A stretch of DNA of 64,000 nucleotides from a virus, in the IMG/VR virus record IMGVR_UViG_3300042691_046823; one strand, given 5' to 3'. The notes under the pieces were generated by a model, which saw nothing but the letters and a program-made list of their open reading frames with translations, did not search any database and was not told the DNA's origin. This document shows, piece after piece, positions 29,143-47,869 of the stretch. A program made the position numbers and the translations under genes. Position 1 is the first letter of the stretch. Every line of letters starts with the position of its first letter.

Positions 29143-29218
29143 GGGCCTGTAGCTTAAACAGTGAAGCAAGCGACTCATAATCGCTAGAGTGCGGGTGCAA
29201 GTCCTGCCGGGCCCACCA
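29143..29218 (+). tRNA. tRNA-Ile2 (CAU), possibly Met
   Basis: cloverleaf, AGCGA-CTCATAA-TCGCT arm like ileX, encoded CCA; T-loop reads TGCAAGT. Confidence 0.85.
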
Positions 29219-41901: not shown

Positions 41902-42792
41902 ATGAAAAAACTCGTATTAGCAGTAGTCATGTTAGTATCATCCCACGTGGCCATGGCCAAAGACACCTTGTCGATCATCTGGCCTTTTGGCCCGGTGGCT
42001 GCCACCTTGCCTGTAAGGAGCATGATAGATAATCACAACCGTACAGGGCAATCTCCCACACTGATCTTGGAGTTCAAACAAGGTGCCGGCGGAGTGGTAG
42101 CCACGCAACATGTGCTGTCCAGTTCCGAACCCATTATCTACTATGCGTCGGCCGGATTTTTTTTGTACAATGCCTTTGCAGAAAAACAGGCCTATGATGT
42201 GAACAAGTTCATGACCCTTAAACATCTTTGCGACTTGCCAGTGACCGTGGCCAGCAAGAAGTTTCCTTCCATGCGAGCTATCCCATCTGATCGCCCTGTG
42301 ACCGTGGCTACCACCGGCACAGGCAACGGTTTCCATTTGGTATTCAAGGCCTTGCAACGACAGTATCCTAACATGATCGAGATTGCCTACAAGGGCAGTG
42401 CAGATGGCATCAAAGATCTGCTGGGCGATCATGTGGACATGATCATTGCCACACCGGGAGATACCTTTCCGTTGGAGGACAACAAACTGGCCAAGAACAT
42501 TGGCGTGACCGGTTCCAGCCGCGTGCGCAGTATCCCTACGCTGACCGAATCTTTGATTCCAAACACTCAGCGCCTGACCATAGGTTACTATTTCTTCCTG
42601 GACCAGAGATTCGCTGATCGTGCCGAATCCTATCGCAAGATTTTGGACACCAGTGTGGACAACAACACCAAGGAGATCATGGCTAAGAATCACTGTGTAC
42701 CGGCCACTACCTCTGCGGCACAACTGCCAGGCTTCATCCAGAACGCCCAGACTTTTTGGAACCAACAAGCGGCTGCTGTGCGCACCAAATAA
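41902..42792 (+). CDS. Bug/TctC substrate-binding protein
   Basis: signal peptide, KQGAGG, YKGS..DLLGDHVD, IPTL.E. Confidence 0.85.
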   Translation: MKKLVLAVVMLVSSHVAMAKDTLSIIWPFGPVAATLPVRSMIDNHNRTGQSPTLILEFKQGAGGVVATQHVLSSSEPIIYYASAGFFLYNAFAEKQAYDVNKFMTLKHLCDLPVTVASKKFPSMRAIPSDRPVTVATTGTGNGFHLVFKALQRQYPNMIEIAYKGSADGIKDLLGDHVDMIIATPGDTFPLEDNKLAKNIGVTGSSRVRSIPTLTESLIPNTQRLTIGYYFFLDQRFADRAESYRKILDTSVDNNTKEIMAKNHCVPATTSAAQLPGFIQNAQTFWNQQAAAVRTK

Positions 42793-42857
42793 GCACTATG
42801 CGTTCCAGATGTTTTTTATCAAGATCAGATCTTGATAGGTTTCGGAAAAACTCAAGG

Positions 42858-42886
42858 TTGACAAGATATAAATAAACCCATACAAT
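42858..42886 (+). promoter_or_regulatory. consensus sigma70 promoter with nested TATAAATA late promoter
   Basis: TTGACA-N17-TACAAT; TATAAATA at 42867-74. Confidence 0.85.
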
Positions 42887-42896
42887 AGATACTATT

Positions 42897-43025
42897 ATGG
42901 AACTTAGCACTTCATTATCAATATCGCACAAGCATCTGATGTTTGGTTGTCAGCCAACATGGGTTGGATGCCTATCAGTGTATACTCGTGCGATCGAGGA
43001 CAATGATAGTGGAGGGTCTGTGTAG
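42897..43025 (+). CDS. candidate attenuator leader peptide (42 aa, all 20 amino acids)
   Basis: MELSTSLSISHKHLMFGCQPTWVGCLSVYTRAIEDNDSGGSV*; stop lies in antiterminator 5' arm. Confidence 0.65.
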   Translation: MELSTSLSISHKHLMFGCQPTWVGCLSVYTRAIEDNDSGGSV

Positions 43026-43088
43026 ATAACTTAGTATCAAGTTTTTTACAAAGACCCTGGATCGAAAGATACCAGGGTTTTTTATTTT
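43013..43088 (+). terminator. overlapping antiterminator/terminator (attenuator)
   Basis: 43013-32 pairs 43039-58; alternatively 43052-63 pairs 43068-80 (GAAA loop) followed by T-run. Confidence 0.8.
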
Positions 43089-43100
43089 ACAAGGATGAAG

Positions 43101-43271
43101 ATGAACAATGTTTGTGAATTTGGATGTGAATGCGATAGCTCGGTGTTCAAAAATTTTGAGACAGTATTAGATCCCATGGATCTCGACCGATTGATACAGG
43201 ATAAGATAGCCAGAGCTCGCAGATACATCGAACTACAGGAGAACATCGGCAAAAAAGTTCAAGCCGATTGA
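43101..43271 (+). CDS. small hypothetical protein (56 aa)
   Basis: AAGGA SD; first ORF after attenuator. Confidence 0.5.
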   Translation: MNNVCEFGCECDSSVFKNFETVLDPMDLDRLIQDKIARARRYIELQENIGKKVQAD

Positions 43272-43419
43272 TTTCTAAGACGCCTAAACGCAACGAGGGT
43301 GAGTGCCGGCGTCAAATAAATTGGCCTAACGGGCGGACCGGTGGATGGAGTTCTTCTTGTAGAACAAAAAATACCGGCGATAGCCAAGCACATTCCAACA
43401 AGTGTGCTTCGCTATCTAT

Positions 43420-43493
43420 CGCGGGTTAGAGAAATGGTATCTCGGGAGTCTCATAAGCTCCAGTTGGCGGTTCAACTCCGTCACCCGCAACCA
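43420..43493 (+). tRNA. tRNA-Met (CAU), initiator-like acceptor stem
   Basis: CGCGGG start, C1xA72 mismatch, CTCATAA loop, CCA. Confidence 0.88.
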
Positions 43494-43497
43494 ACAT

Positions 43498-43581
43498 GGA
43501 GAAGAAGCATCAATGGTGATGCACTGGACTGTAAATCCGGCGCCTCGGGCACGACTGGTTCGATCCCAGTATTCTCCACCA
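43498..43581 (+). tRNA. tRNA-Tyr (GUA)
   Basis: CTGTAAA loop, long variable arm, CCA. Confidence 0.92.
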
Positions 43582-43585
43582 ATAA

Positions 43586-43660
43586 GGTCCTATAGTTTAT
43601 CGGTTAGAATTCCGCCCTGTCACGGCGGGGGGACGAGTTCGATTCTCGTTGGGACCGCCA
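43586..43660 (+). tRNA. tRNA-Asp (GUC)
   Basis: CTGTCAC loop, GCCA end. Confidence 0.92.
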
Positions 43661-43667
43661 TTTGTAT

Positions 43668-43741
43668 TCCGGTGTGGTATAATGGCATTATGGCGGTCTC
43701 CAAAACCGTTGATGGGGGTTCGATTCCCTCCACCGGAGCCA
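43668..43741 (+). tRNA. tRNA-Trp (CCA)
   Basis: CTCCAAA loop, GCCA end. Confidence 0.92.
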
Positions 43742-43749
43742 AGTTTTAT

Positions 43750-43824
43750 GCACCGTTCGTCTATCGGTTAGGACACCGCCCTTTCACGGCGGGAAGAGGA
43801 GTTCGATTCTCCTACGGTGTACCA
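43750..43824 (+). tRNA. tRNA-Glu (UUC)
   Basis: CTTTCAC loop, CCA. Confidence 0.92.
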
Positions 43825-43831
43825 CAACAAT

Positions 43832-43909
43832 GCATCGGTACCAGAGAGGCCCAATGGCGAGGTCTGCAAAACCTTCGATTCGCTGGTTCGAATCCAGCCC
43901 GATGCTCCA
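43832..43909 (+). tRNA. tRNA-Cys (GCA)
   Basis: CTGCAAA loop, U73 TCCA end. Confidence 0.92.
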
Positions 43910-43998: not shown

Positions 43999-44220
43999 AT
44001 GAAACTCTTGACCGCAATCGTTGCATCCGCATTTGCTGTAACCGCTTTCGCACAAGCACCAGCACCTGCCAAGAAAGACGAAAAGAAAGCCGCGCCTGCT
44101 GCCGCAACCGCATCTGCAAAGGATGCCAAGCCGGCCGCTCCTAAAAGTGACGCTAAAGCAGCCCCTGCCAAAAGCGACGCTAAAAAGGACGATAAAAAAG
44201 CCGAAGCCGCTAAGAAGTAA
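43999..44220 (+). CDS. secreted Ala/Lys/Pro-rich low-complexity protein
   Basis: signal peptide ending AFA; KSDAK repeats; AAGGA SD. Confidence 0.8.
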   Translation: MKLLTAIVASAFAVTAFAQAPAPAKKDEKKAAPAAATASAKDAKPAAPKSDAKAAPAKSDAKKDDKKAEAAKK

Positions 44221-44423
44221 TCCTTCGAGGTATCTTCTACTACATGTACAGAACGATGACTTTGGTTTTTGGATCGATGACGAATCCATACATGTAGGAT
44301 ATAGAAAACCTTCGTTGACAAAGAAAGACATTCCCGTTGATGATCTTTCTGAACAAGTGAAGTTCCGTTTGTGGTTGGCCAGGCAACTGGCCCTTATGAA
44401 AGCAAGCGGGTATGACCTGAGAA

Positions 44424-44452
44424 CCCAGATCTAATCTGGGTTTTCTTTTTTT
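44424..44452 (+). terminator. intrinsic terminator
   Basis: CCCAGAT/ATCTGGG stem plus T-run. Confidence 0.7.
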
Positions 44453-47330: not shown

Positions 47331-47489
47331 ATGAAATTATGGGAAGCCACTGTGAGAGATCCCGGACCCGGAACACAAGAACGTACCGTGCGCATAGGGG
47401 CCGAAACTGCCGAAGAAGCCCGGCACCGATTGCAGGAGTTGTATGGACCAAGATCGATTCCCTATCTGCCTCGACTGGTTCCGCAATAA
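47331..47489 (+). CDS. small hypothetical protein (52 aa)
   Basis: MKLWEATVR...LYGPRSIPYLPR; TAAATA upstream. Confidence 0.5.
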   Translation: MKLWEATVRDPGPGTQERTVRIGAETAEEARHRLQELYGPRSIPYLPRLVPQ

Positions 47490-47506
47490 GTAGTACAGTA
47501 GTGATA

Positions 47507-47830
47507 TTGTTGTATGAAGCAAGCCGAAAAATGTGCAAGACGCGGGGGCAGCACCCGCCGGCTCCACCAAGAGAGGATTTGACATGGAACTATATACCGA
47601 ACGCGATTGGCAACGTATCGTAGGCTGGGGTATGTGTCCAGAACATCTCAAGATCAAGTCTTCTGTTGATGGGGCCGAACCAGGATCGATTGTGCAAAGA
47701 GTAAGTGAGCAGACAACACGAGAGTCGACTGACGTAATCAGCGAAAAACCATAAACGCCAACGACGACGTTTACGCATTGGCCGCTTGACGGCTTGCTGA
47801 GGTAGGACATACCAAGAAACAGAAAACACC
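47507..47830 (+). ncRNA. ssrA: two-piece circularly permuted tmRNA
   Basis: acceptor piece ends CGGCTCCACCA (47569) upstream of coding piece GGGGCCG (47671); G3-U70; tag ANDDVYALAA* at 47757-47789; outer boundaries approximate. Confidence 0.9.
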
Positions 47831-47852
47831 AGCCCGCCTTGGCGGGCTTTTT
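47831..47852 (+). terminator. intrinsic terminator after tmRNA
   Basis: AGCCCGCC/GGCGGGCT plus T-run. Confidence 0.85.
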
Positions 47853-47869
47853 CAGCAAATTATCACAAC

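Follow-up and report, generated by a model that had tools for sequence, protein, structure and literature searches.

Why phages carry tRNA genes is a long-standing question, for which the two main answers are codon compensation and rescue when tRNAs are lost. A regulatory switch heading a tRNA array would reveal under which condition the phage calls on its tRNAs. Such a switch was predicted in the DNA studied here, a stretch of 64,000 nucleotides from the virus record IMGVR_UViG_3300042691_046823 (hereafter the window). The original prediction describes a promoter, a short leader ORF with all 20 amino acids and two competing hairpins ahead of six tRNA genes. Here, we ask whether this unit is real, what it senses and what it controls.

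Comparison of related sequences indicates that the leader-switch unit is real, conserved and under selection across a large family of giant-phage contigs. Based on sequence and folding models, we consider it likely (probability of about 0.8) that the unit is a ribosome-dependent, whiB7-like transcription attenuator sensing broad decoding failure.

Organisation of the leader region

The predicted sigma70-type promoter (42858-42886, plus strand; TTGACA-17-TACAAT) is indeed present and matches the consensus at 11 of 12 positions. Transcription is expected to start at around 42893-42894, which would leave a 5' leader of 3-4 nt before the AUG. A Shine-Dalgarno site is missing from the leader of the window. 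A comparable promoter was found in 51 of 67 relatives and is near-leaderless in 30. The promoter spacer contains TATAAATA, an octamer resembling T4 late promoters (42867-42874, plus strand). It occurs four times in the window, always on the plus strand (30635, 39600, 39647 and 42867), compared to 1.08 expected occurrences, and ATAAATA is present in the promoter spacer of 29 of the 67 relatives. The nested octamer possibly provides a second, late start.

The leader ORF (42897-43025, plus strand) comprises 42 sense codons and a TAG stop codon. The predicted counts of 20 amino acids and 36 distinct codons are exact, and the estimate of about 30.5 distinct codons for uniform draws was recomputed as 30.52. 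Residues occurring only once include Phe16, Trp22, Tyr29 and Asn36, the latter being the last new amino acid. The leader was also said to contain codons for every tRNA of the window. This is true but trivial, since all 20 amino acids are present; moreover, the tRNA-Thr lies outside the controlled unit, and another of these tRNAs (29143) is found at a distance of 14 kb.

The end of the ORF merges into the switch. In the antiterminator hairpin (43013-43058, plus strand; -20.0 kcal/mol, z -5.29), the 5' arm is formed by the final codons of the leader together with its stop codon. The intrinsic terminator (43050-43085, plus strand) consists of a stem at 43054-43078 with a GAAA loop and a U-tract, and its hairpin at 43050-43083 has a folding energy of -18.4 kcal/mol (z -6.03). 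Both hairpins overlap at 43054-43058, where the 5' arm of the terminator is shared, in agreement with the predicted geometry. A further long hairpin is predicted within the leader coding region (42908-43012, plus strand; z -2.42 against codon shuffles) and may act as a pause or protector structure. Family-wide, the leader coding part is moderately structured (median z -1.97) and no pause site was identified. An Rfam search over 42700-43419 (E ≤ 10) yielded only a weak chance match on the opposite strand and no T-box, riboswitch or amino-acid leader.

Affiliation of the window and sampling of relatives

The window belongs to a giant phage, since its gene order is collinear with that of IMG/VR contigs bearing the same leader (L104, L041, L100, L152, L036 and L071) and its exonuclease best matches those of cultured phages of 285-366 kb (Paride, the PA5oct group and XaC1; about 50% identity). 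Leader-carrying contigs reach 374 kb. A betaproteobacterial-type tmRNA (47457-47854), also found in the relative L023, hints at a betaproteobacterial host group; this part of ribosome rescue is located outside the attenuated unit.

Neither the leader region nor the leader of a relative had a blastn match among 50,697 phage records, and the leader is not recorded as a gene in database records. The pattern of the non-coding RNA described below was absent from four cultured-phage records. The leader switch was also absent from the inspected heads of the tRNA blocks of Paride and XaC1; hence, no cultured carrier is at hand. Scanning GTDB returned one chance match and one 6-kb contig of a Polynucleobacter MAG (L188:5660-6223) featuring a leader with 20 amino acids, the switch and a variant of the non-coding RNA. 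This contig is probably misbinned phage DNA and at most a hint at the host. A read search found single near-identical pieces of 151-190 nt at 42990-43141, 43301-43451, 43416-43605 and 43524-43663; these may derive from DNA and were given no weight. Shorter leaders with the same switch logic but a different sequence were observed before other tRNA arrays (L001, approximately 1300-1400 on the minus strand, and L007).

Relatives were collected in three samples with different anchors, so that every property could be tested on loci selected by other features. Sample (a), obtained with a pattern for the RNA only, comprises at least 120 loci. Among the matches listed, 110 of 120 have an ORF of 32-57 codons which ends 5-33 nt past the start of the 5' arm, with tRNAs downstream in most, as anticipated for a short ORF with its stop codon within the antiterminator. 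From these listed matches, 67 leaders with less than 70% identity form the RNA-anchored test set. Sample (b), based on a pattern for the coding part that fixes a few residues, contains 38 distinct leaders. The switch fold was found in all of them, tRNAs in 34 and all 20 amino acids in 32. Sample (c) is anchored on the downstream non-coding RNA and added 37 new leaders. Here, 31 loci have tRNAs and 36 show an overlap of at least 5 bp, so that the predicted overlap of antiterminator and terminator is kept at homologous loci. No terminator was detectable by scan at 12 further loci with this anchor.

These numbers bear on the simplest rival explanation, namely an ORF that by chance precedes a constitutive terminator, or a convenient frame within a structured RNA. 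Translation of the leader is predicted from sequence alone, which leaves some room for this explanation. On the other hand, it does not account for the 110 loci with an ORF ending in the antiterminator. The non-leader frames contain 3-4 stops among the listed matches of sample (a), and most leader indels (53 of 85) have lengths divisible by three. We therefore regard a chance ORF as hardly credible.

Alternative folding of the switch

When the footprint of a ribosome was masked during folding of the window leader, the model gave the antiterminator a probability of about 1 with any of codons 2-36 in the A site, and of 0 once the A site had reached codon 37 or a later position up to the stop. 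According to the original prediction, a stall at any codon allows read-through. This holds for codons 2-36, but from codon 37 onwards the ribosome already covers the 5' arm, so that codons 2-36 constitute the sensed part. A ribosome placed at the stop codon led to the terminator in all 67 leaders; the two hairpins are mutually exclusive in these models, as had been proposed. In 66 of the 67 leaders, the antiterminator is the first structure to form if no ribosome is present.

Comparison of the folding energies favours the antiterminator over the terminator by a median of -2.3 kcal/mol (-0.9 kcal/mol in the window). At full-length equilibrium, the terminator of the window copy wins for stalls at codons 12-34 and in the absence of a ribosome. 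Read-through would thus require kinetic trapping of the first-formed antiterminator. Family-wide, upstream stalls leave the antiterminator at 0.70-0.84.

Covariation in sample (b) supports both structures, as the shared strand covaries with both of its partners. At one position, the three-way combination is A-U-A in 14 loci versus G-C-G in 12, and a second position alternates between C-G and U-A. The inner stem of the antiterminator, which lies beyond the searched core, has z values below -2 in 64 of 67 leaders.

Because the antiterminator forms first without a ribosome, general inhibition of translation should also turn the switch on. The unit could then be a plain translation-coupling gauge responding to ribosome number, antibiotics, dormancy or infection stage, in which the breadth of the leader is incidental and any translated spacer serves. 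Short leaders with 16-18 amino acids in certain relatives are in line with this explanation. Left unexplained are the excess of leaders with all 20 amino acids, the positional turnover of single residues and the over-dispersion of codons presented below, which makes a plain gauge improbable.

Selection for amino-acid and codon breadth

Comparison with phage gene fragments was named in the original prediction as a check of codon diversity. Fragments of 42 codons contain all 20 amino acids with a probability of about 0.015 and at least 36 distinct codons with a probability of at most 1e-4; none of 20,000 fragments combined both features. In the RNA-anchored set, 33 of 67 leaders contain all 20 amino acids, compared to 1.7-2.4 under four null models (maximum 9). 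The ncRNA-anchored sample yielded 20 of 37 (1.2 expected, null maximum 4). The off-frames of the 67 leaders are mostly closed and gave 0-1 such cases, and the downstream small protein, used as a control of similar length, gave 0 of 35. Permutation of residues within alignment columns resulted in 5.7 instead of the observed 33 leaders, indicating that shared ancestry alone is insufficient to explain the excess.

Single residues are retained while their position shifts. Cys is found at 25 different offsets from the central Trp. Among 48 leaders with less than 55% identity, it precedes the Trp exclusively in 28, follows it exclusively in 13, flanks it on both sides in 3 and is lacking on both sides in 4. 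The last value compares to 11.3 expected (P = 5e-6; for Tyr, P = 2e-4), although the P-values given here are too strong, because the leaders share descent and are not fully independent. Like Cys, the residues Tyr, internal Met, Phe and His are mutually exclusive across the central Trp, suggesting that one copy is kept at changing positions. A singleton-retention test (odds ratio 2.7) was set aside, as site-rate differences and alignment slippage mimic its signal.

Repetition is avoided as well. Pro-Pro is absent from 122 leaders (7 expected, P = 0.0015) and adjacent repeats are depleted (185 versus 260 expected). The composition is even, with the top residue accounting for 13.5% and 2.6 Ala per leader, which is under the phage background. 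Synonymous codons are over-dispersed, with 33.7 versus 32.7 under a permutation preserving columns and residues (0 of 1000). With peptide identities dropping below 50%, this supports the predicted high codon diversity despite peptide divergence.

NNU codons of the Ala, Val, Thr and Pro boxes are usually read by two tRNAs. In the leaders, these codons are avoided (0.12 versus 0.32 in phage genes), whereas NNU codons are favoured in two-codon boxes (0.75 versus 0.62). Base composition is not the explanation for these opposite trends. The window leader does not show the avoidance (3 of 8). Using a generic proteobacterial set of tRNA readers, the leaders probe 24.9 of 32 single-reader tRNA classes, compared to 22.4-23.5 in the nulls. 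The sensing of all tRNAs claimed in the original prediction is therefore to be restated as broad sensing, since the window leader probes 25 of the 32 classes of this generic set.

New amino acids accumulate at 0.22-0.66 per codon until 9 nt before the 5' arm and at only 0.01-0.03 in the next two codons. The loss near the arm may in part be due to base-pairing constraint. The boundary about 9 nt before the antiterminator would correspond to the reach of the ribosome.

A functional peptide, i.e. an arrest peptide, a ligand sensor or a trans-acting product whose composition simply follows from its function, was considered as another explanation. The central Trp is found in 96% of the leaders, and the motifs YWS and DRTPE recur. 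The synonymous positions of these motifs are also fixed (TAT 20/20, GAT 15/15, ACA 15/15), which points to a codon or RNA constraint. With identities dropping below 50% and the mobile Cys, a functional peptide appears quite improbable. Instead, the sequence data support selection of the leader for amino-acid and codon breadth.

Genes and RNAs behind the switch

The switch is followed by no plus-strand promoter up to position 44315, and the read-through transcript probably ends at a terminator further downstream (44419-44445, plus strand). This transcript is therefore predicted to contain a 58-aa ORF, a non-coding RNA, six tRNAs and two small ORFs. The six tRNAs announced in the original prediction are present, but do not follow the switch directly, as 337 nt with the 58-aa ORF and the non-coding RNA intervene.

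The 58-aa ORF (43095-43271, plus strand) is the first gene past the switch; its start codon is probably the one at 43101, which is preceded by an AAGGA site. We found 44 distinct homologues, all in the same position, for example at L029:6315-6473 directly 3' of the terminator. The family members are helical, 50-58 aa long and share an invariant Lys and Arg and the motif LTxEQ...LI..K.ERA. The structure model shows a single long helix (pTM 0.43). Pfam and PDB gave no match, and the matches obtained elsewhere were limited to a PHROG lacking annotation (5 of 35 members) and to Atlas clusters without a name.

The structured non-coding RNA (approximately 43279-43385, plus strand) is about 105 nt long and features an invariant AACGAGG loop and AACGGGCGG. 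In the alignment of relatives, two helices are 91% paired, with double changes. A proposed pseudoknot helix is paired in only 23% and is thus unsupported. Using a strict motif, the RNA was detected in 32 of 67 relatives; it has no match in Rfam. It was also observed at L028:9816-9937, L083:10406-10527 and many more heads of tRNA arrays, as well as in a second phage group with shorter leaders (L001-L008).

The array consists of tRNA-Met(CAT) (43420-43493), tRNA-Tyr(GTA) (43498-43582), tRNA-Asp(GTC) (43586-43660), tRNA-Trp(CCA) (43668-43741), tRNA-Glu(TTC) (43750-43824) and tRNA-Cys(GCA) (43832-43909), all on the plus strand. The latter four were identified by ARAGORN and Rfam, while tRNA-Tyr was missed by ARAGORN and identified by Rfam and its fold. 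The tRNA-Met has an initiator-type acceptor (C1-A72), but an anticodon stem without the three G-C pairs, which possibly reflects nuclease evasion or an altered role. Further downstream, the unit encodes a repetitive small protein rich in Lys, Ala and Asp with a signal-peptide-like start (43999-44220, plus strand), followed by the second short ORF.

Beyond the terminator, the segment 44538-44832 comprises a perfect sigma70 promoter (44538) and the RNA polymerase omega-like gene (PF01192) that it drives. It is followed by tRNA-Thr (45000), which is thereby served by a promoter of its own. A lone tRNA with a CAT anticodon and its own promoter-like site was observed at 29143-29218. Based on its identity elements, we presume that it may be a lysidine-type Ile tRNA.

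The match between the leader and its own array is weak (P = 0.019), and the presence of an ATA codon is unrelated to that of tRNA-Ile(TAT). A model in which the leader is codon-matched to the array was therefore rejected. As only six tRNAs are supplied, most sensed codons lack a replacement, and the original idea of replacement tRNAs made on demand does not fit a unit with six tRNAs and two further products. With 20 amino acids sensed and so weak an array match, the output rather resembles a general rescue package.

Proposed mechanism

The mechanism builds on structures, mutual exclusion, covariation, an open frame and amino-acid selection within ribosome reach, all of them computational observations. 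From these, we infer translation of the leader, termination, their timing and the trigger. RNA polymerase would initiate just upstream of the leader AUG. An unhindered ribosome would proceed to the last codons and the stop, cover the 5' arm of the antiterminator and allow the terminator to form, which keeps the unit off. If the ribosome were held up anywhere within codons 2-36, this arm would stay free. The antiterminator would then capture the 5' arm of the terminator and, having formed first, persist until the polymerase clears the U-tract, so that transcription continues into the small gene, the non-coding RNA and the tRNAs. Masked-footprint folding, covariation and leader composition agree with a leader-ORF attenuator of the polarity originally proposed. 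A single codon can be sufficient for sensing, as found for a Trp-less whiB7 variant (10.1101/2023.06.02.543512).

Candidate triggers are tRNA cleavage by host defences, host tRNA decay, starvation and general ribosome inhibition. The switch may mainly detect attack by host anticodon nucleases and supply nuclease-resistant replacement tRNAs, which would agree with the codon spread at the level of isoacceptors and with the atypical anticodon stem of the initiator-like tRNA. An extra tRNA would remedy tRNA loss, not amino-acid starvation, and rescue from defences that cut tRNA is an established function of phage tRNAs (PMC11555353, PMC10264068). However, six tRNAs are insufficient for most sensed classes, the leader hardly matches the array, and the decay of host tRNA in the course of infection would serve equally well as a trigger (PMC13191261). 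Overall, we consider this counter-defence role plausible, with the balance somewhat against it. The most far-reaching form of the attenuator reading is a purpose-built, isoacceptor-tuned audit of the whole aminoacyl-tRNA pool in giant phages, which switches on tRNAs together with a small helical protein and a structured RNA acting on ribosomes or tRNA; we put this forward tentatively and think it rather unlikely.

If the attenuator reading is true, the leader is a natural sensor for all amino acids that could be used to detect tRNA-targeting defences, and a 230-nt reporter in a laboratory strain could read out its inducing condition. The switch also points to two uncharacterised co-regulated products, the small protein and the non-coding RNA.

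Comparison with known systems

A search of full-text literature, with most subscription papers outside its coverage, found no paper on leader-peptide control of tRNA genes. If true, the unit is the first leader-peptide attenuator controlling tRNA genes known from the literature searched.

Phage tRNA clusters known from the tRNA-rich region of T5 and SP15 (PMC11555353) and from work on anticodon-loop variants (PMC10264068) can also offset tRNA loss, but they rely on a strong promoter and conditional termination is not reported for them. The trn operon of Anabaena with its regulator TrcR is similar in that a normally silent tRNA array is induced by translational stress. It differs in that it is plasmid-borne and that a ribbon-helix-helix repressor controls its initiation; a leader ORF switch is not described for it (PMC10272220).

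The trpL, hisL, pheL, thrL and ilvGMEDA leaders share with the phage unit a leader ORF, overlapping hairpins and a biased synonymous choice (PMC1183508). Classical leaders contain repeated codons for the 1-3 amino acids that the operon makes or uses, while the phage leaders avoid repeats and have tRNAs as output (PMC1183508). The trp/his-type geometry of the original prediction thus applies to the ORF and the hairpins, but not to the control codons, as a run of these is missing and repeats are depleted.

The closest resemblance in polarity is to the whiB7/wblC uORF attenuator, in which full translation leads to termination and stalling to the antiterminator (10.1101/2023.06.02.543512). Broad amino-acid coverage of the uORF is common to both; in Mycobacterium smegmatis, the whiB7 uORF contains all amino acids but Cys, and starvation is sensed via single codons (10.1101/2023.06.02.543512). 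The whiB7/wblC uORFs are actinobacterial and alanine-rich, vary in coverage between species and control a bacterial transcription factor. The phage leaders, in contrast, are viral, shorter and even in composition, with all 20 amino acids represented across the family, and the output comprises tRNAs, a small gene and a non-coding RNA. Judged by these features, the phage switch is not a member of the whiB7/wblC family.
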